Shown: piece by piece, positions 16,900 through 28,561 of the stretch
Layout of the letters: each line of letters begins with the position of its first letter
Numbering within the stretch: position 1 is the stretch's first letter
Assembly (NCBI GenBank): GCA_023663085.1
Contig: JAMPIB010000001.1
Span: forward strand, 32,046-96,045
Direction of reading: 5' to 3'
DNA length: 64,000 bases
Origin: Ruminococcus sp.
GTDB taxonomy: Bacteria > Bacillota > Clostridia > Lachnospirales > Lachnospiraceae
The notes under the pieces: model-generated
The model's database searches: none
What the model saw: the letters and a program-made list of their open reading frames with translations, nothing else
Told to the model about the DNA's origin: nothing
Translations under genes and position numbers: made by a program

Positions 16900-16940
16900 A
16901 ATAAAAGCGATAGAATAGAAGCGTAATGGAGAGATATAAG

Positions 16941-18068
16941 ATGAAAATGAGAGAAGATTTGAGGAAAGAATTAGAAGAGGCTTTTCAGTGGTTTCATGAG
17001 CATCCGGAGCTTTCTTATAAAGAGTATGAGACGACGGCGAAGATACGGGAAATATTGACGGCGCACGGGATTGAGATTCTGCCGTATGAATTGGAGACAG
17101 GACTTGTGGCGGTAGTGCGCGGCGAGAAAGATGGCGCCGTGCGGGCGCTGCGATGTGATATCGACGCGCTGCCCATTGAAGAAGCGACGGATTTATCCTA
17201 TCGTTCTAAAAAAGCAGGAAAGATGCACGCCTGCGGACATGACATGCATATCGTGTCGGGTATCGGGTGCGCGATTCTGTTGCAGGAGAAGCGGGAGACG
17301 TTAAAAGGTACGGTGAAGATCATTTTTCAGCCGGGGGAAGAAACGGCATTAGGCGCCTTAAAGATTCTGGAAACAGACGTTATGAAGGATGTGGAATATA
17401 TCTGGGGTTTTCATGCCGATCCGACCAACGCAGTCGGCGTGATCGGTATCCGCGCGGGCTATGTGGCGGCAGCGGCGGATAGATTCCGGATCACTGTAAA
17501 AGGAGTCGGATGTCATGGTGCGCATCCGGATGACGGCATAGACCCCATCCTTACTTCCGCGGCCATCATACAGGCCCTGCAGTCTGTCGTCAGCAGAAAT
17601 GTGAATGCCTTTCACCCTTCGTTACTCAGTGTAACGCGCATCAGCGCGGGGACGACATGGAATGTGATTCCCTCGGAGGCGGTCATGGAGGGGACTGTGC
17701 GTACCATGGAACGCGAAGACCGGGTTTTGTATGAGAAAAAAGTAAGAGAGATAGCAGAACAGACGGCCGGAGCCTATGGCGCGGAGGTGCAGATAGAGTG
17801 GATCGCGGGAGCGCCCGCTGTAGAAAATGATAAAAAAATGTCGGACTTTGTGGAAAGAAAAGCCGGGGAAATGGGCCTTGAGACTGTCCCGGAGGAAAGT
17901 TCCATGGGCGGCGATGATTTTTCCCTTTATGAAGAGAAAATGCCGGGATGCTATATCAAGATAGGCACCGGGATCGGACACCCGATCCATCATCCGGGAT
18001 TTCGCGTTGATACGAAAGTACTGCCGCAGGCGGCGGCGTTTTTGGCGAAGGTGCTGGGAGAAACGTGA
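16941..18068 (+). CDS. M20D-family amidohydrolase (N-acyl-L-amino-acid amidohydrolase/hippuricase-like)
   Basis: The HACGHD metal-binding motif and an M20 dimerisation domain. GGAGAG lies 7 nt before the ATG at 16941; 16926 is an alternative start. Confidence 0.75.
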   Translation: MKMREDLRKELEEAFQWFHEHPELSYKEYETTAKIREILTAHGIEILPYELETGLVAVVRGEKDGAVRALRCDIDALPIEEATDLSYRSKKAGKMHACGHDMHIVSGIGCAILLQEKRETLKGTVKIIFQPGEETALGALKILETDVMKDVEYIWGFHADPTNAVGVIGIRAGYVAAAADRFRITVKGVGCHGAHPDDGIDPILTSAAIIQALQSVVSRNVNAFHPSLLSVTRISAGTTWNVIPSEAVMEGTVRTMEREDRVLYEKKVREIAEQTAGAYGAEVQIEWIAGAPAVENDKKMSDFVERKAGEMGLETVPEESSMGGDDFSLYEEKMPGCYIKIGTGIGHPIHHPGFRVDTKVLPQAAAFLAKVLGET

Positions 18069-18074
18069 TTTTAT

Positions 18075-18299
18075 TTACATATTCTTTACTGCCTGTTCAA
18101 ATTCCTGTTCTGTATCCACAAAATGATATGGTTCATATTCTCCATAAGCAGAAGGTCTGCTTATAGTTACTAACTGAATTTGTTCATATCCAATTTCCTG
18201 TATAAGGCGTTCTTTAAAATCTGCTAAATGTGAGCCAAGTGTGGTTTGCAGGGCAAGGCAGCCTGCATCATCAAATTTCTTTGCGATTAAGTAGCACAT
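18075..18299 (-). CDS. Small 74-aa protein; candidate antitoxin or partner of the upstream RelA/SpoT-domain protein
   Basis: The ATG at 18299 is preceded 8 nt upstream by a strong AAGGAGAAA RBS that lies inside the 3' end of the upstream gene, with a 29-nt overlap. The region is AT-rich and I see no recognisable domain. Confidence 0.45.
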   Translation of the reverse strand: MCYLIAKKFDDAGCLALQTTLGSHLADFKERLIQEIGYEQIQLVTISRPSAYGEYEPYHFVDTEQEFEQAVKNM

Positions 18300-18906
18300 T
18301 CTTTAATTTCTCCTTAAACTCATTTTCATTTCTAATTTCAGCATTTTCGTATGCATGCCTTAAATGCTGCCCAATGCTATTATCATACGGTTTTTTATAG
18401 ATATATTTATGGAGCCAGTTGTTCATTTGTCTATCATAATAAGTATTATATTGTATTTCAATGGGATAATGAAAATTATCTAATTGATAATATACATGAA
18501 CTCCCCTATAGCCATCATCATGAGTTTTTCCATTGGACAGATCTGCAATCCGTATCTGCTTACAGCCTTTTAATAATAATACGGTTTCATAGTTATTACA
18601 AAGTGTCCGAAAACCCAACATATCATTAAATACTTTTCCGGCTTGATGATCAGGATAATAGCGCATATACTTCAGAAAAGCTGATTGGATACTTTTTATC
18701 CTGTAGTCAGTTGCAAGATCATGAAGATATTCGCATTTATCATACCACTTATTTATTTTTTTCAATTCGTCAAATAATACTTCTTTATCAAAATAGTGTA
18801 AATTCTTTTTCAAATTGATATTCATATTTGAACGATATGATAATTTTTCCAGTATTTTTAAAGATAAGCCATCTTTTTTCAGGATATCTTCGATTGCCTC
18901 CGACAT
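18271..18906 (-). CDS. Divergent RelA/SpoT-domain nucleotidyltransferase, small alarmone synthetase-like; candidate toxSAS-type toxin
   Basis: All the core synthetase-domain motifs are present but divergent: YRIKSIQSAFLKYMR (the R-x-K-x3-S-x3-K motif), NDMLGFRTLC (D-x2-G-x-R), DDGYRGVHV (the GYRSLH motif) and PIEIQYNTYYDRQMNNWLHKYIYK (the EIQIRT...W...H...YK motif). It is 211 aa with GGAG 6 nt upstream, and the region is visibly AT-rich relative to its flanks. Confidence 0.65.
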   Translation of the reverse strand: MSEAIEDILKKDGLSLKILEKLSYRSNMNINLKKNLHYFDKEVLFDELKKINKWYDKCEYLHDLATDYRIKSIQSAFLKYMRYYPDHQAGKVFNDMLGFRTLCNNYETVLLLKGCKQIRIADLSNGKTHDDGYRGVHVYYQLDNFHYPIEIQYNTYYDRQMNNWLHKYIYKKPYDNSIGQHLRHAYENAEIRNENEFKEKLKNVLLNRKEI

Positions 18907-18984
18907 ATTATGGACTCCTATATATTATAATGTTTCATATTGTATTCAAACTTCTGGTCTGAGAAAATAGTATTGCGGAGAAAA

Positions 18985-20238
18985 TTAAAAATAATCCGAA
19001 AAATACGGTTTCTCCACCGGAATCAGCCGCTCCAGCCAGGTCAGCATATAATACTCTGTCTGTATCTTTTCATGCTCGTAAAGATAGGTGGGTCTTTTAT
19101 ATCCCATGAGCATCGTAGTCAAAGTGTTGACCGATAGTTCCACGACATTAATGGACTGGTTATTTTCCACCCGTTCGCAGATCGTTTTGCCATCGTGCCA
19201 GGAGACCATATAATCCCCTTCGTTCCAGGGCGCCATCCGGTCGTGGACGAGGAAATGGAGTTTGAAGTCTTCGGGCTGTACCTGATAAGGGTATTCAGAA
19301 AGAAATTCTTTCACGTCGATGACACGCGCCATGATATACGGAGAAATCGTTTCCGTAATTTCGCTGTCGTCAAACAGATAGGCCATCGGTTCGCCGGAAT
19401 AGTTATCGCCCTGTACCTGTGTGATCATGGAAAAATGCGCGCTGATATAATTCCAGAGTCCGTGATTGGCCTCGATATTTAAGTAGACCATTTCCTTGAT
19501 ATGAAAAATCTCATTGGCAATATAATAGACGACATAACCGAGCGGTTTATGTTCTTTGCTGTAATAAACGGCGGCAATGATATCGTCGTTATCCCAGCGC
19601 CAGTATTCTTCCCAGGAAAGAGCGTCACGGATCAGCGCGCCGTGGCGTTGCAGCGCAAAATAGGAATGTACATTATGATAGTCTTCGGAATCGAGAGAGA
19701 CTCTTTCCACCATGCCCTCTACGGGAATTGCTTTAGGGAGCTGTGTGTCCTTGACGATAAAGGTCAGTTTATCCGAGACGATTTCCCAGCCCATTTTCCG
19801 GTAAAAAGGAATGGAGTAGGGATACAGGAAAGAAAGCAGCATACCCTGCTGGTGGATATAATCCAGCGCATGTTTCATCAGAGAATGGATAAGTCCCCTG
19901 CCGGTATATTCCGGATAAGTGGCCACGCCGGTAATGCCGCCCATGTCCATAATGGTATCGTGGATATTGACTTTCATGGAATAGACAACGATCATGGAGG
20001 CCAGTTTCTCCTGATAAAACCAGCCGAGCACATAGGCTTCTTCCAGAATCGGTCTCTTGGCATATTTGATTTCATCTAACTGCCAGCCGGTCTGGAACAG
20101 GTCGTAGGATGTGACCTGAAAAGCATATTGCAGCAAAGCGTTAAACTGCTCCAAGTCTCCTTTATCCAGTTCCCGCATTTTAAAATTTTCATTTACTTCC
20201 AAATAAATAGGTTCCTGTACGTCATCCATAAGAGTCAC
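18985..20238 (-). CDS. GNAT-family N-acetyltransferase with a C-terminal SCP2-like domain (Eis-like)
   Basis: It is about 410 aa with an N-terminal GNAT fold, a second GNAT-like region and a C-terminal sterol-carrier-like domain, which is typical Eis architecture. The start is ambiguous between the GTG at 20238, the ATG at 20229 and the ATG at 20178. Confidence 0.65.
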   Translation of the reverse strand: MTLMDDVQEPIYLEVNENFKMRELDKGDLEQFNALLQYAFQVTSYDLFQTGWQLDEIKYAKRPILEEAYVLGWFYQEKLASMIVVYSMKVNIHDTIMDMGGITGVATYPEYTGRGLIHSLMKHALDYIHQQGMLLSFLYPYSIPFYRKMGWEIVSDKLTFIVKDTQLPKAIPVEGMVERVSLDSEDYHNVHSYFALQRHGALIRDALSWEEYWRWDNDDIIAAVYYSKEHKPLGYVVYYIANEIFHIKEMVYLNIEANHGLWNYISAHFSMITQVQGDNYSGEPMAYLFDDSEITETISPYIMARVIDVKEFLSEYPYQVQPEDFKLHFLVHDRMAPWNEGDYMVSWHDGKTICERVENNQSINVVELSVNTLTTMLMGYKRPTYLYEHEKIQTEYYMLTWLERLIPVEKPYFSDYF

Positions 20239-20249
20239 CTGTTCCCGGT

Positions 20250-21134
20250 TTAATCGAAGTATTCAGCGTATTTTCCCATATCTGCGTCAAAAAAGCAGAA
20301 GCCGATGATGCCGCGTCCGGTATGCGCACCGATCGCACAGCCGACGGTGGCAATCAGAACCGATTTTGGATGAAAATTTTCCTGGATCATAGATTCCATG
20401 AAATGCAGAGTCTCTTCATCTTCCCCGTGGCAGATGGCAATGGTCTGTTCATCCAGATGATATCCGTTTTCTCTGGCATAATCAATTAGTGCTTTTAAAG
20501 ATTTTTTACGGCCGCGGACTGTCTTGATAACGGACAGCGCGCCGTTTTCATCTACGACTAAAACAGGTTTCATATCCAGCGTTTCGGCCAGTGTGCCTTT
20601 AAATTTAGTGAGCCGCCCGCCCTTGATTAAATACGCAAGTGTCTGTACGGTGAAAACATGTTTAATATGAGAGATGAAATAATCCGCAGCTTCTATGATC
20701 TCCTCTTTAGAAGCGCCTTTTTCCAACATTGTGACCAGTTTGGAAACGACCAGACCAAAGCCGATTGACGCGCACTTAGAGTCGATGATAGTCAGGTCAA
20801 AATCCGGATAATCTTCCAGTACGTTGTTTTTGGCAATATTGGCGGCGTTATAAGTGCCTGCTATGCCAGTTGAAAAGCAGAGATAGATGATGGTATCCCC
20901 GGCCTTGGCATAAGGCGTAAAGGCGTCTGTGAACATGGCCGGATTGATGTGGTAGGTCTTTACATCACGTTTTATATCGTCTAGAATGTCATAAAATTCT
21001 TTTGTCTGAATGGTCTGACCGTCAAAATAGTCTACGTCGTCAATGACAACGGGTGTCGGGATGACGTGAAGGTGATGTTCTTCAATGTAGCTTTTTGGCA
21101 GGTCGCTTGCTGAATCGGTGATTATACGAAGCAT
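20250..21134 (-). CDS. DegV-family fatty-acid-binding protein
   Basis: An N-terminal ITDSASDLP motif, 294 aa and a DegV/EDD fold. Confidence 0.85.
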   Translation of the reverse strand: MLRIITDSASDLPKSYIEEHHLHVIPTPVVIDDVDYFDGQTIQTKEFYDILDDIKRDVKTYHINPAMFTDAFTPYAKAGDTIIYLCFSTGIAGTYNAANIAKNNVLEDYPDFDLTIIDSKCASIGFGLVVSKLVTMLEKGASKEEIIEAADYFISHIKHVFTVQTLAYLIKGGRLTKFKGTLAETLDMKPVLVVDENGALSVIKTVRGRKKSLKALIDYARENGYHLDEQTIAICHGEDEETLHFMESMIQENFHPKSVLIATVGCAIGAHTGRGIIGFCFFDADMGKYAEYFD

Positions 21135-21243: not shown

Positions 21244-21289
21244 AGGCTAAGTAAAAAAAGACAATAAATAGATACATTGATAAATAAGT

Positions 21290-21552
21290 CAAGACGTTGA
21301 AGAAGCCAGTAGCTGGTCTTTCAAAATCACAGCGAGCCGGGGAGGGTGCAAGCCCGGTATGAGTAAAAGATCAGGGAAAATCCCTTCCGAGTCTCGGACT
21401 GAACATTCTTTAGAATCAGTAGGATCCGACGGTGTTTCCGCCGTTACCGGAAACCGCATGAATGACGCAGCAGGCGCATCGTGCGTGTAACAGGTGGTAA
21501 ACGAGCGCATAAGACCTCGTCCTTTTACAGGATGGGGTTTTTATTTTTTCTA
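21290..21552 (+). ncRNA. T-box riboswitch leader (Ile-specific) preceding ileS
   Basis: The roughly 300-nt structured leader contains the T-box-like sequence AACAGGTGGTAAACGAGCG (21489-21507). A terminator hairpin follows (cctcgtcc / ggatgggg, 21515-21537, then a U-run). A candidate AUC(A) specifier lies at about 21337-21344. ileS is classically T-box controlled in Firmicutes. Confidence 0.55.
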
Positions 21553-24922: not shown

Positions 24923-27400
24923 ATGCAAAAGAAAACGGCACAATTTGATACGGAATTGTTTAAACGGAGCGTACTTTATAATGTAAAGACGCTTTACCGG
25001 AAGACGCTGGAGGAGGCGAGTGACCAGCAGATCTTTCAGGCAGTATCCTATGCAATAAAAGATGCCATTGTCGATCAGTGGATGACATCACAGAAAGAAT
25101 ATGACAAACAGGACCCCAAGATGGTATATTATCTTTCCATGGAGTTCTTAATGGGTCGTGCGCTCGGCAATAACCTCATCAACTTACAGGCGTATGATGT
25201 CTTCAAAAAGGCGCTTCAGGAGTTGGGCATTGATCTGAACATAGTGGAAGATCAGGAGCCTGATCCCGCTTTGGGAAACGGTGGTCTGGGAAGACTGGCT
25301 GCCTGTTTTCTGGACTCTCTGGCAACGCTCGGATATGCGGCGTATGGCTGCGGTATCCGCTATCGTTACGGTATGTTCAAACAGGAGATCAGAGACGGTT
25401 ATCAGGTAGAAGTGCCCGATAACTGGTTACAGGATGGCAATCCGTTTGAACTGCGCAGACCAGAATATGCCAAGGAAGTCAAATTCGGCGGTTATGTGAA
25501 TGTCTATGTTGACGAGAACGGCAGAAACAACTTCAAACAGGAAGGTTATCAGTCGGTACGGGCCGTGCCGTATGATATCCCGATAGTCGGCTATGGCAAC
25601 GGCATTGTCAATACGCTGCGTATCTGGGATGCGGAACCGGTAGAGTGTTTCCATCTGGATTCTTTTGATAAGGGCGATTACCAGAAGGCTGTCGAGCAGG
25701 AGAATCTGGCCAGAAATATCGTAGAAGTATTGTATCCGAACGATAACCATTATGCCGGTAAGGAATTGCGTTTAAAACAGCAGTATTTCTTCATCTCCGC
25801 CTCCGTACAGGAAGCTGTGGCGAAATATATGCGTAAACATGACGATATCCGGAAATTCCATGAGAAAGTTACCTTCCAGCTCAACGATACCCATCCGACA
25901 GTAGCTGTCGCGGAACTGATGCGTATCTTAATGGATGATTATTATCTGACATGGGATGAGGCGTGGGAAGTCACCACTAAGACCTGCGCGTATACAAATC
26001 ATACCATTATGGCAGAAGCTTTGGAGAAATGGCCGATAGAACTGTTTTCAAGACTGTTGCCGCGTGTTTATCAGATCGTGGAAGAAATCAACCGTAGATT
26101 CGTAGCGCGGATCGAGCAGTTGTATCCGGGCAATCAGGAAAAAATTAAAAAGATGGCCATCGTCTATGACGGACAGGTAAAAATGGCGCATCTGGCCATT
26201 GCGGCAGGTTATTCCGTAAACGGTGTAGCAAGACTGCATACGGAAATCCTGAAAAATCAGGAACTCAAAGATTTCTATGAAATGATGCCTGAGAAATTCA
26301 ATAATAAGACCAACGGTATCACACAGAGACGTTTCCTTCTGCACGGCAATCCGTTGCTCGCAGACTGGGTAACGGCACATGTCGGCAGCGACTGGATCAC
26401 CGATCTGCCGAAGATCAGCAAGCTGAAAGTCTATGCGGATGACGAAAAGGCACAGCAGGAGTTTATGAACATCAAGTATCAGAATAAAGTACGTCTCGCC
26501 AAGTACATTAAGGAACATAACGGAATCGACGTAGACCCGCGCTCCATCTTTGATGTACAGGTTAAGAGATTACATGAATATAAACGTCAGTTGATGAATA
26601 TCTTACATGTTATGTATCTGTATAACGAGTTAAAAGAGCATCCGGATATGGATTTCTATCCGAGAACCTTCATCTTCGGCGCCAAGGCGGCTGCAGGCTA
26701 TCGGAACGCCAAGCTGACGATCAAGCTGATCAATGCGGTAGCTGATGTGGTAAATAATGATGCGGCTATCAACGGCAAGATCAAGGTGGTATTTATTGAG
26801 AACTATCGTGTATCCAACGCCGAGATGATCTTTGCGGCAGCCGACGTATCGGAGCAGATCTCGACGGCAAGTAAAGAGGCGTCCGGTACGGGTAACATGA
26901 AGTTCATGTTAAACGGCGCGTTGACCATCGGTACAATGGATGGCGCGAACGTGGAAATCGTGGAAGAGGTTGGAGAGGAGAATGCTTTCATCTTCGGTTT
27001 AAGTTCAGATGAAGTCATTAAGTATGAGAATTACGGCGGATACTCTCCGATGGATATTTTTAACAACGATCCTGATATCAGAAAAGTTCTGATGCAGCTT
27101 ATTAACGGAACCTATTCACCGAACGATCCCGAACTGTTCAGAACACTGTATAACTCTTTGTTAAATACACAGAGTACGTCCAAAGCGGATACTTACTTTA
27201 TCCTCAAAGACTTCAAACCTTACGCGGAGGCGCAGAAGAAAGTGGAGGCAGCTTATAAGGATGAGAAGAACTGGGCAAGGAGCGCGATTTTAAACGTGGC
27301 ATGTTCCGGTAAGTTTACATCTGACAGGACCATTCAGGAATACGTGGATGAGATCTGGAAACTGGATAAGGTAGTGATCCCCAAGAAGGCGAATTCATAA
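24923..27400 (+). CDS. glgP: Alpha-glucan (glycogen/maltodextrin) phosphorylase
   Basis: The GT35 family signature (EFLMGRALGNNLINL), the PLP-binding Lys region and 825 aa. Confidence 0.9.
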   Translation: MQKKTAQFDTELFKRSVLYNVKTLYRKTLEEASDQQIFQAVSYAIKDAIVDQWMTSQKEYDKQDPKMVYYLSMEFLMGRALGNNLINLQAYDVFKKALQELGIDLNIVEDQEPDPALGNGGLGRLAACFLDSLATLGYAAYGCGIRYRYGMFKQEIRDGYQVEVPDNWLQDGNPFELRRPEYAKEVKFGGYVNVYVDENGRNNFKQEGYQSVRAVPYDIPIVGYGNGIVNTLRIWDAEPVECFHLDSFDKGDYQKAVEQENLARNIVEVLYPNDNHYAGKELRLKQQYFFISASVQEAVAKYMRKHDDIRKFHEKVTFQLNDTHPTVAVAELMRILMDDYYLTWDEAWEVTTKTCAYTNHTIMAEALEKWPIELFSRLLPRVYQIVEEINRRFVARIEQLYPGNQEKIKKMAIVYDGQVKMAHLAIAAGYSVNGVARLHTEILKNQELKDFYEMMPEKFNNKTNGITQRRFLLHGNPLLADWVTAHVGSDWITDLPKISKLKVYADDEKAQQEFMNIKYQNKVRLAKYIKEHNGIDVDPRSIFDVQVKRLHEYKRQLMNILHVMYLYNELKEHPDMDFYPRTFIFGAKAAAGYRNAKLTIKLINAVADVVNNDAAINGKIKVVFIENYRVSNAEMIFAAADVSEQISTASKEASGTGNMKFMLNGALTIGTMDGANVEIVEEVGEENAFIFGLSSDEVIKYENYGGYSPMDIFNNDPDIRKVLMQLINGTYSPNDPELFRTLYNSLLNTQSTSKADTYFILKDFKPYAEAQKKVEAAYKDEKNWARSAILNVACSGKFTSDRTIQEYVDEIWKLDKVVIPKKANS

Positions 27401-28561
27401 AGTGTTGGACATTTTTTGACGATATTCGCGCGGCGTCATGCCGTATTGATCCTGAAACAGTTTATAAAAATAAGTACGATTGGAAAAAGACAGCTTCGCC
27501 ATGATAGACGATACGGATTCGTTCGTCGATGAAAGGTAGTAAGCTGCTTTTTTCATGCAAAATTCCATACCGTAAGTATGCAGAGACATGCCGGTATACT
27601 TGTTTATGATACGATTCAGATAATCGCCGCTGTAATTTAATTTCTGTGACAATTCGCTCCGGGTGATGCGCCCGTCATTTTCGTCCAGCAGATGTTCCAC
27701 ACGGGAAAACAGAAGATAATCGCTGTTATTGGACAGTTCCGCACAGGTACAGTGATAACTCTTTGGATCGGTTATATATTGCAGGATGCTGCATAAAAGC
27801 CCGTTTAACATATAAGTGGAACCAAAGCGCGGAAAGAGAATGGTCGTAATAAGATCTTCCGTCAGTTTGTGAAGATAGTTTTGCGGCGCGGCATTGTGCA
27901 GGGTGGGAATAAAGTCTAAGTATGCCTTGCGGCCGGGACTGTTGATGTCGTTGGCAATAAAATCGTAAAGCAGCGTTTCCCGTATCTGATTTTCTTCCGT
28001 AAAATAGGCCAGACCGCCGATGTTGAGGAGGTTCATGATAAACTCTGCGGAGAATCCCAGAAACAATACTTTTGTCGGCTGCAAAAAAGCTTCTCTGTGG
28101 AAAAGATTACGGTTGATGCAGCAGGAGCATCCCTGCGAATACAGATATTCTTTGCCCTCGATCTGCTGGATCAAAGAGCCTTCTATCACAATGAGAAATT
28201 CATAAAAATCATGAAAATGAGGCGGCCTGTTACGGAAAAAATAATTGTGCAGCTTCATGGTCTCCTGAAAAAAAGAAGTGCCTTTTTCCGATAAAGACAG
28301 GATATTCAGGTAATCATCTTTCTCAGAGCCGCTGCAATATTCATAAGTGATCTGAAAGGGCGCATTCAGTTTATAAAAATAATTAAGATTGCTGTCTGAA
28401 TTTAAAATGTTGAAGGGCATATTCTTATCATCACTGAAGTCCGATGGTGAAGGATTGATAAATTCTTTTCTGGCCATATCCTGATCTCCTTTAAAAGATT
28501 CCCATTTTTGATACAAAATCTGTAAAACATATCTGATTAGGTCATTGTTCCCAAACAGCAT
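27395..28561 (-). CDS. AraC-family transcriptional regulator
   Basis: A C-terminal AraC helix-turn-helix (YFYKLFQDQYGMTPREYR) and an N-terminal ligand-binding domain of about 250 aa. It is divergent from the sugar ABC operon. Confidence 0.8.
   Translation of the reverse strand: MLFGNNDLIRYVLQILYQKWESFKGDQDMARKEFINPSPSDFSDDKNMPFNILNSDSNLNYFYKLNAPFQITYEYCSGSEKDDYLNILSLSEKGTSFFQETMKLHNYFFRNRPPHFHDFYEFLIVIEGSLIQQIEGKEYLYSQGCSCCINRNLFHREAFLQPTKVLFLGFSAEFIMNLLNIGGLAYFTEENQIRETLLYDFIANDINSPGRKAYLDFIPTLHNAAPQNYLHKLTEDLITTILFPRFGSTYMLNGLLCSILQYITDPKSYHCTCAELSNNSDYLLFSRVEHLLDENDGRITRSELSQKLNYSGDYLNRIINKYTGMSLHTYGMEFCMKKAAYYLSSTNESVSSIMAKLSFSNRTYFYKLFQDQYGMTPREYRQKMSNTL

Follow-up and report, generated by a model that had tools for sequence, protein, structure and literature searches.

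The closest described counterpart of the locus analysed here is the FaRel2:ATfaRel2 toxin-antitoxin (TA) system of Coprobacillus sp. D7 (PDB 8PU1-8PU4; PMC7229694; Kurata 2021; PMC11782079; PMC11559606). The FaRel2 subfamily was defined in 2020 (PMC7229694), and the crystal structure of ATfaRel2 has been published together with the mechanism of neutralization (PMC11782079). The toxin gene comes first in this operon, with a published 150-bp upstream fragment that runs into the FaRel2 start MYILDKIGL, and the proteins comprise ~207 aa (toxin) and 73-75 aa (antitoxin). In CapRel SJ46, a toxSYNTH domain also pyrophosphorylates tRNA, and a pseudo-Zn-finger blocks the ATP donor site with its YxxY motif (PMC11782079), but this system is one fused polypeptide that is triggered by a phage capsid and regulated in cis. 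PhRel2:ATphRel2 and PhRel:ATphRel (gp29:gp30) are toxSAS TA modules with a bicistronic organization and also act on translation, and type II antitoxins protect against their cognate toxSAS only (PMC7229694). RelQ and RelP share the ancestral RelA/SpoT nucleotidyltransferase fold and the mode of ATP coordination, but they have no antitoxin partner, lack ordered N-terminal tRNA-binding helices (PMC11782079), and make (p)ppGpp without modifying tRNA.

The window, i.e., the whole 64-kb stretch of DNA that was analysed, stems from a Lachnospiraceae-type gut MAG and not from Coprobacillus. The preliminary description had proposed a toxSAS-type system of two tightly coupled genes, a 211-aa ORF and its small partner of 74 aa, which overlap by 29 nt, with the ribosome-binding site (RBS) of the small ORF inside the 3' end of the large gene. 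These points were all correct; both ORFs are on the minus strand, and the pair matches FaRel2/ATfaRel2. The following features belong to the gene pair:

18271..18906, minus strand: putative faRel2 orthologue, encoding the 211-aa toxSAS toxin (ORF list; phmmer against the PDB)
18075..18299, minus strand: putative aTfaRel2 orthologue, encoding the 74-aa antitoxin (DUF6718, pseudo-Zn-finger domain, YxxY at Y52/Y55; Pfam and PDB matches)
18271..18299, minus strand: 29-nt overlap of the toxin 3' end with the antitoxin 5' end (ORF coordinates)
18310..18315, minus strand: antitoxin Shine-Dalgarno AAGGAG, within the toxin coding sequence, 10 nt 5' of the ATG (sequence)
18915..18919, minus strand: toxin Shine-Dalgarno AGGAG, 8 nt 5' of the ATG at 18906 (sequence)
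18924..18929, minus strand: TATAAT -10-like hexamer (sequence and alignment to locus L001, which has TATGAT)

With high probability, the segment represents an intact FaRel2/ATfaRel2 type II TA operon, the toxin of which would pyrophosphorylate the 3'-CCA ends of tRNA. For the window copy, this conclusion is based on family membership, the conservation of residues and partner, purifying selection, and the distribution of the cassette among relatives, whereas enzymatic activity, toxicity, neutralization, and stoichiometry are inferred from the published type system, the toxin of which is 52% identical. Protein lengths and gene order are as in Coprobacillus sp. D7, and conservation extends to all residues of the donor site, catalysis, the G-loop, tRNA binding, the YxxY motif, and the secondary interface.

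When the 211-aa protein was used as a phmmer query against the PDB, the FaRel2 chains 8pu4_A, 8pu1_B, and 8pu3_C were found with E-values of 7e-67 to 1e-66, and residues 8-210 aligned without gaps to residues 3-205 of FaRel2. The Pfam RelA_SpoT score of 26.8 bits is 0.2 bits short of the gathering score (cut-off 27), and the toxin is not covered by any NCBIfam model. The (p)ppGpp-synthetase-fold motifs that had been named in the preliminary description are all present, namely R69-x-K71-x3-S75-x3-K79, D95-x2-G98-x-R100, G132-Y133-R134-G-V-H137, and E150-I-Q152-Y-N-T155...W164-L-H166. With the ATP-donor, catalytic, and G-loop residues of FaRel2 listed in PMC11782079 as a reference, R64, K66, S70, K74, R77, D90, G93, R95, Y128, E145, and Q147 are identical here, where they correspond to R69, K71, S75, K79, R82, D95, G98, R100, Y133, E150, and Q152, respectively. 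By these measures, the protein, which had been described as a 'divergent' SAS, is a typical FaRel2-subfamily protein and not unusually divergent.

A survey of 80 homologous loci from other species showed that the functional positions of toxin and antitoxin are conserved in 75-80 of them. The G-loop tyrosine Y133 (GYRGVH) is invariant (80/80 loci), and the G-loop mutant Y128A of the type FaRel2 is non-toxic (PMC7229694). The basic tRNA-binding pair K28/R29 of FaRel2 is found as K33/K34, a conservative R-to-K exchange, and most family members likewise have a lysine in the second position of this pair (75 of 79 loci). The protein is predicted to combine a toxSYNTH domain, i.e., a nucleotidyltransferase domain of the RelA/SpoT type, with a helical extension at the N-terminus that binds tRNA. 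Its least conserved part is the N-terminal region for recognition of the tRNA acceptor stem, which is 43% identical to FaRel2 as compared to 60% for the catalytic core, and therefore the tRNA preference could differ from that of the type system, i.e., the targeted tRNA species may not be tRNA-Gly/Thr.

The 74-aa protein matches the Pfam family PF20476 (DUF6718) over its entire length (1-74 of 74; E 1.8e-35, 121.5 bits, cut-off 27), and in the PDB search it matched the ATfaRel2 chains 8pu1_A and 8pu3_A (E 2e-20, 55% identity). The 8pu1_A sequence is also contained in entry 8pu2. The NCBIfam search with the antitoxin gave just a meaningless weak Pal match. V44, I46, A51, Y52, and Y55, which form the YxxY motif and the beta3 scaffold, are identical to V43, I45, A50, Y51, and Y54 of ATfaRel2, and the same holds for R48, Y58, and F60 of the secondary, tetramerization interface (R47, Y57, and F59 in ATfaRel2). 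The YxxY residue Y55 is kept in 76/76 loci. By these matches, the partner is an orthologue of ATfaRel2, the structure of which is already solved, and not the undescribed antitoxin type that had been suspected. Since the solved complex is 52-55% identical to the pair, it also settles the fold. Unlike in CapRel SJ46, the antitoxin is encoded by a separate gene and would act in trans, the topology of the pseudo-Zn-finger is circularly permuted, and the sequences have no detectable similarity; PDB searches with the toxin, the antitoxin, and the family profile returned no CapRel chain at E<=10. The PhRel2 and PhRel modules differ in their RSH subfamilies, in their antitoxins, which are not homologous, and in their association with phages or prophages.

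In the survey, 77 loci had enough sequence to judge the partner, and the antitoxin gene was directly downstream of the toxin gene and overlapped it in 77/77 of these, which answers the question of whether the small ORF is conserved beside homologues; the remaining 3 of the 80 loci lie at contig edges, with no more than 36 nt left beside the toxin. Of the overlaps, 44 measure 29 nt, 17 measure 20 nt, 15 measure 32 nt, and one measures 13 nt. The 29-nt overlap in the window suggests translational coupling. From the RBS to the start codon of the antitoxin, the minus strand reads TTTAAGGAGAAATTAAAGAATG, and this Shine-Dalgarno sequence is kept in the FaRel2 loci L001-L004 (alignment columns about 727-746), whereas the toxin Shine-Dalgarno AGGAG is common to the window and L001. 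The TATAAT hexamer falls in the upstream part that is conserved with L001 and is possibly the gene pair's own promoter, a view that is based on the TATAAT/TATGAT conservation only, and the -35 element that can be paired with it is poor (TTGAAT, 14-nt spacing). A consensus promoter scan called no clear minus-strand sigma-70 promoter in the 78 nt that precede the toxin gene, and expression could therefore depend on read-through from DegV-GNAT. The sole terminator-like hairpins found in a terminator scan sit within the 3' end of the M20 gene, and an Rfam search of the cassette at a relaxed threshold revealed no RNA antitoxin and no other RNA family.

The gene pair lies in a segment that had been described as AT-rich and as horizontally acquired into a core-gene junction. 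A comparison within the window agrees with the first point, as the GC content of 18075-18984 is 0.314 compared to a window mean of 0.475 (sd 0.035, 910-bp windows), making this the 910-bp stretch of lowest GC in the entire window. The cassette and its flanking genes are as follows:

18069..18939, minus strand: extent of the transferable cassette (blastn against FaRel2 loci of other species)
18985-20238, minus strand: GNAT/Eis-like acetyltransferase, flanking gene
20250-21134, minus strand: DegV, flanking gene
16926-18068, plus strand: M20 peptidase, convergent flanking gene

The called GNAT and M20 genes encode 414 and 375 aa, and the ORF starts used here differ. The cassette is the only stretch of the window with DNA similarity to FaRel2 loci of other species (blastn identity of 91.5% to L001 and 92% to L002), and the comparison with these two loci showed no DNA similarity in the flanks and no flanking proteins in common. 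The cassette genes are absent from 80/80 loci of relatives that carry the GNAT orthologue (60-90% identity), and the GNAT-M20 gap measures 9-51 bp in four cassette-free relatives (L094, L100, L103, and L152); both observations support the insertion of a unit of ~870 bp. Very probably, the cassette was thus horizontally acquired into the junction between housekeeping genes. A search for target-site duplications and terminal inverted repeats gave one 16-nt, 81% inverted pair alone (18057-18072 and 19000-19015). We treated this pair as chance, because both arms fall within the coding regions of the flanking genes, and the sequence of the GNAT-side arm also occurs in cassette-free relatives.

The system of Coprobacillus sp. 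D7 suggests, by homology, the following mechanism. The 211-aa toxin would bind uncharged tRNA via its basic N-terminal helices and, with ATP as the pyrophosphate donor, would pyrophosphorylate the 3'-CCA end, so that the tRNA could no longer be aminoacylated and translation would stop. The 74-aa antitoxin, whose translation from the shared mRNA would be coupled to that of the toxin, would bind the toxin by beta-sheet extension, and the tyrosines Y52 and Y55 of its YxxY 3-10 helix would be pushed onto the adenine-stacking arginines R69 and R100 of the toxin. In this arrangement, ATP would be excluded while tRNA binding would still be free, and contacts of R48, Y58, and F60 would stabilize a 2:2 heterotetramer. 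The AT-rich cassette of ~870 bp was very probably gained horizontally and is located between the convergent 3' ends of the GNAT and M20 genes.

The physiological role of the pair could be that of a selfish addiction module or of a phage-triggered abortive-infection system. That the pair is such a defence system in its native host, and not merely a selfish addiction cassette, is possible but doubtful. The related toxSAS CapRel SJ46 and PhRel/gp29-gp30 protect against phages (PMC11559606), family members were found on 12 viral contigs in IMG/VR, and the cassette is mobile and AT-rich, as are many defence genes. However, the surroundings of the locus are housekeeping genes (opp operon, M20, GNAT, DegV, and ileS) and not those of a prophage or a defence island, and neither PADLOC nor PHROGs gave anything significant: in PADLOC-DB 2.0, the toxin had just a weak PDC-S33 match (E 0.0029, 15 bits) and the antitoxin none, and in PHROGs there was no significant match for either protein. 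Moreover, none of the 50,697 records of a phage GenBank collection matched, and the family members that also occur on Clostridium plasmids fit plasmid addiction. For the family as a whole, we rejected a fixed genomic context or defence-island association, as the neighbours are diverse; the commonest, prfA, is found in 13 of 75 loci. We further regard it as improbable that either the divergent acceptor-stem region reflects a different tRNA set together with phage-triggered abortive infection in gut commensals, or the bare two-gene cassette moves between species without a recombinase or repeats. If true, the latter kind of transfer would imply an undescribed route for TA cassettes.

A FaRel/Tas1-like toxSAS that kills through (pp)pApp synthesis and ATP depletion, without tRNA modification, is very unlikely. 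Both (pp)pApp and tRNA modification had been named as options in the preliminary description, and the toxSYNTH fold is indeed the same, with the FaRel2 core superimposing on Tas1 at 1.0 A rmsd (PMC11782079). However, the sequence is that of FaRel2, a subfamily that has been shown to pyrophosphorylate tRNA, and the tRNA-binding pair is kept. In addition, the antitoxin has a pseudo-Zn-finger, a type that acts by blocking the donor site for ATP, whereas (pp)pApp producers are neutralized at the acceptor site by Tis1 domains or SAH hydrolases (PMC11782079). No gene for a Tis1 domain or a SAH hydrolase is adjacent; the DUF6718 protein is the sole partner, and the neighbours are GNAT and M20.

It was in principle conceivable that the cassette is a decaying, non-functional remnant, as the toxin is broken in 7 of the 80 family loci (about 9%; five premature stops, one frameshift, and one deletion of the 5' end), which means that an intact toxin is not universal in the family. 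The window copy is intact, however, since neither ORF is truncated, start codons and RBSs are in place, and no functional residue has been lost, and identical copies of the two proteins exist in three NCBI records. The dN/dS values relative to orthologues are well below 1 (0.07-0.23 for the toxin and 0.04-0.07 for the antitoxin), showing that purifying selection acts on both genes, and decay is accordingly a most improbable explanation. A housekeeping RelQ/RelP-like small alarmone synthetase, which would synthesize (p)ppGpp in stress signalling and be accompanied by an incidental small ORF, would share the RelA/SpoT motifs and the label 'putative GTP pyrophosphokinase' that some sources give to homologues, but it is scarcely credible, as a profile of 25 family members matched FaRel2 with E 3e-98 and the next structure, RelQ/YjbM, marginally with E 0.01, so that the toxin does not group with RelQ/RelP, the overlapping ORF is a constant companion that itself matches a characterized antitoxin, the N-terminal tRNA-binding extension has no ordered equivalent in RelP/RelQ, and the cassette is missing from the host's close relatives and thus is outside their shared gene set.

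The gene pair of the window therefore belongs to the already characterized FaRel2/ATfaRel2 family and is no new kind of system. The survey shows the family to be widespread among gut Lachnospiraceae, as relatives were present in genomes of 264 species. Databases contain 2159 homologues, which, along with the matches to solved structures and the dN/dS values, puts the gene pair far beyond chance. The main value of the assignment is improved annotation, while the understanding of the mechanism is unchanged: the exact proteins of the window are named 'hypothetical protein' at NCBI (MCM1037719.1 and MCM1037718.1), and many of the more than 2000 homologues, as well as plasmid-borne copies, have no functional name. 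With DUF6718 recognized as ATfaRel2, such loci can be named as tRNA-pyrophosphorylating toxSAS TA modules, and the survey provides a background for testing phage defence by FaRel2 in native hosts.

The gene pair on the minus strand is laid out as in the preliminary description, and its ribosome-binding site and all listed motifs were likewise found in the window sequence:

18271..18906, minus strand: 211-aa toxin ORF (ORF call)
18075..18299, minus strand: 74-aa antitoxin ORF (ORF call)
8 nt 5' of the ATG of the 211-aa ORF, minus strand: its Shine-Dalgarno AGGAG (sequence)
10 nt 5' of the ATG of the 74-aa ORF, within the 211-aa ORF, minus strand: its Shine-Dalgarno AAGGAG (sequence)

The two ORFs overlap by 29 nt, and the toxin carries the motifs R69-x-K71-x3-S75-x3-K79, D95-x2-G98-x-R100, GY133RGVH, and E150-I-Q152-YNT...W164-L-H166. 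The surroundings are housekeeping genes (opp-type transporter, M20, GNAT, DegV, and ileS with a T-box): DegV and a three-domain GNAT/Eis-like acetyltransferase gene lie upstream on the same strand, and an M20 peptidase gene is convergent with the cassette, its stop only 6 nt from that of the 74-aa ORF. The AT-richness noted earlier was borne out, as 18075-18984 has a GC content of 31.4% against a window mean of 47.5% (sd 3.5%, 910-bp windows) and is the GC minimum among the 910-bp stretches of the 64-kb window. The second-lowest stretch (about 0.36; 27395-28561, minus strand) coincides with a 388-aa ORF of AraC-like appearance at its C-terminus, and an ABC sugar-permease pair runs divergently from this ORF. 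Rfam at its gathering threshold found no RNA family in the whole window; the ordinary T-box leader at 21288-21527 (plus strand), upstream of ileS (21594), was missed because it scores 73 bits against a gathering score of 93, with the model covered at full length (E 6e-16).

Among PDB sequences, the toxin matched solely the three FaRel2 chains from Coprobacillus sp. D7 (8pu4_A, 8pu1_B, and 8pu3_C; E 7e-67 to 1e-66), with a gap-free alignment of residues 8-210 to FaRel2 3-205 at 52% identity. The antitoxin is Pfam DUF6718 over its full length (121.5 bits, E 1.8e-35) and matched the ATfaRel2 chains 8pu1_A (a sequence shared with entry 8pu2) and 8pu3_A with E 2e-20 and 55% identity, so the suggestion that it could be an undescribed antitoxin type has to be abandoned. 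A housekeeping RelQ/RelP identity of the toxin is out, as a profile made from 25 members of the family hit FaRel2 with E 3e-98 and, as the next solved structure, RelQ/YjbM with E 0.01; this profile search settles the choice between RelQ/RelP and toxSAS in favor of the proposed toxSAS-type module. NCBI lists the exact proteins (MCM1037719.1 and MCM1037718.1, from MAGs labelled Roseburia sp./Ruminococcus sp.) under the name 'hypothetical protein', probably because Pfam RelA_SpoT reaches only 26.8 bits with a gathering score of 27 and an NCBIfam search with the toxin returned no model. Judged by sequence, the cassette is thus a new, unannotated member of the FaRel2/ATfaRel2 family, which has already been characterized genetically, biochemically, and structurally.

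In FaRel2, the ATP-donor and catalytic residues are R64, K66, S70, K74, R77, D90, G93, R95, E145, and Q147, accompanied by the G-loop tyrosine Y128 and the tRNA-binding pair K28/R29; ATfaRel2 uses a YxxY motif with its scaffold (V43, I45, A50, Y51, and Y54) and a secondary interface (R47, Y57, and F59) (PMC11782079). With an offset of +5 for the window toxin and +1 for the antitoxin beyond residue 39, all these positions are identical in the window proteins except R29, which is K34, and lysine is the most frequent residue there in the family. The named positions are kept in 75-80 of the 80 homologous loci. The catalytic core is 60% identical to that of the type FaRel2, the N-terminal tRNA-recognition helices 43%, and the C-terminal dimerization region 45%.

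By homology to the type system, the basic N-terminal helices of the toxin (K33/K34) would bind uncharged tRNA, and the toxin would pass pyrophosphate from ATP, held by R69, K71, S75, K79, R82, R100, E150, and Q152 with Mg2+ at D95, to the tRNA 3'-CCA end, which would block aminoacylation and hence translation. The type FaRel2 prefers tRNA-Gly and tRNA-Thr, read via acceptor-stem base pairs 1, 2, 4, and 5 (PMC11559606). Antitoxin translation would be coupled to that of the toxin through the 29-nt overlap. The antitoxin is predicted to dock by beta-sheet extension and to insert Y52 and Y55 onto toxin R69 and R100, shutting out ATP but not tRNA, and R48, Y58, and F60 would cross-link a 2:2 heterotetramer (after PMC11782079).

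A large protein collection held 2159 toxin homologues at E<=1e-3, the top one 89% identical, and 264 genomes had relatives in a survey limited to one per species; 80 of the loci were fetched. As expected for a genuine partner in the preliminary description, 77 of the 80 have a DUF6718/ATfaRel2 homologue directly downstream in the same orientation; the remaining three contigs break off no more than 36 nt from the toxin. An overlap of 29 nt, as in the window, is the most frequent (44 loci), ahead of 20 nt (17 loci), 32 nt (15 loci), and a single case of 13 nt. When the window was compared with toxin loci of other species, dN/dS for toxin and antitoxin, respectively, was 0.23 and 0.07 with L001, 0.07 and 0.04 with L003, and 0.10 and 0.04 with L004. 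The Coprobacillus operon is toxin-first like that of the window, because the published 150-bp upstream fragment leads into the FaRel2 start MYILDKIGL; the DNA upstream of that operon is also a binding target of ATfaRel2 (Kd 484 nM; PMC10565793).

Seven of the 80 loci have broken toxin genes, by in-frame stops (L025, L035, L059, L063, and L067), a frameshift (L071), or a 5' deletion of about 18 codons with start and RBS (L002:1-700), and all 77 antitoxin genes that are visible are intact. TA modules usually erode in this way, with the toxin going first. Partial DUF6718-like fragments 0.6-1.2 kb downstream of a complete pair (L027:3402-3500, L035:7320-7418, and L010:7933-8022), comprising the C-terminal ~30 residues at ~80% identity to the window antitoxin, may be remnants of a second cassette.

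Horizontal acquisition into a gene junction, as first proposed, is supported from two sides. DNA similarity to the closest relatives (toxin loci L001, 91.5%, and L002, 92%) is limited to 18069-18939, a span of both genes extended by ~33 nt upstream and by 6 nt downstream, and neither toxin nor antitoxin was found in any of 80 metagenomic loci of host relatives with GNAT orthologues (60-90% identity). The window's flanking proteins recur at none of the 80 toxin loci. In four GNAT-orthologue loci (L094, L100, L103, and L152), GNAT faces M20 in convergent orientation across a gap of 9-51 bp; the closest GNAT relatives (about 90% identity), which have DegV upstream, lack a downstream M20 gene altogether. 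Two further assemblies of the same species have identical proteins in identical context. The junction, equivalent to 18069-18984, is variable in L084, L090, L095, L108, and about 50 similar loci; other lineages carry there what we take, from the translations, to be a ~321-aa Gfo/Idh/MocA-like oxidoreductase gene (~1.2 kb) or a ~490-aa nicotinate phosphoribosyltransferase-like gene (~1.5 kb), the latter accompanied in L084 by a 170-aa repeat-rich ORF. Of 76 family loci, 73 have a cassette poorer in GC than its flanks (mean 0.36 against 0.45), and AT-richness is therefore a family trait. A search at the insertion found neither flanking repeats nor mobility genes. The sole repeat bracketing the cassette, a 16-nt inverted pair (18057-18072 / 19000-19015, 81% complementary), is probably due to chance; its arms belong to the 3' coding sequence of M20 and of GNAT, and cassette-free relatives also have the sequence of the GNAT-side arm.

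Elsewhere in the family, the neighbors are diverse. Of 75 FaRel2 loci, 13 from different species (L005:4812-5891, L010:4891-5964, L017:4533-5606, L019, L020, L028, L037, L046, L048, L050, L067, and others) have a class-I peptide release factor gene directly upstream on the same strand, and one more has a release factor gene downstream. The protein is full-length (~358 aa, Pfam PCRF and RF-1, GGQ present) with an RF1-like N-terminus. This prfA adjacency probably reflects a shared insertion site in one Lachnospiraceae clade, but a translation-targeting toxin adjoining a translation termination factor may deserve attention.

Family members also occur on clostridial plasmids and megaplasmids, in records of Clostridium perfringens (NZ_CP075935.1, NZ_CP118266.1, and NZ_CP119189.1), Clostridioides difficile (NZ_CP037841.1 and NZ_MF547664.1), Clostridioides sp. 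(NZ_CP067350.1), and C. butyricum (NZ_CP039706.1). These FaRel2-like genes are 41-47% identical and mostly annotated 'hypothetical protein', the next gene being a 'DUF6718 family protein' in the C. perfringens, C. difficile, and Clostridioides sp. records, and they look like unrecognized toxSAS TA modules on pathogen plasmids. Twelve IMG/VR viral contigs carry family members, and 50,697 GenBank phage records carry none. PADLOC and PHROGs searches gave nothing significant for the cassette proteins, and a phage-defence role is not established. The broken toxins beside intact antitoxins, together with the plasmid copies, are at least as compatible with a selfish or addiction lifestyle as with a defensive one.
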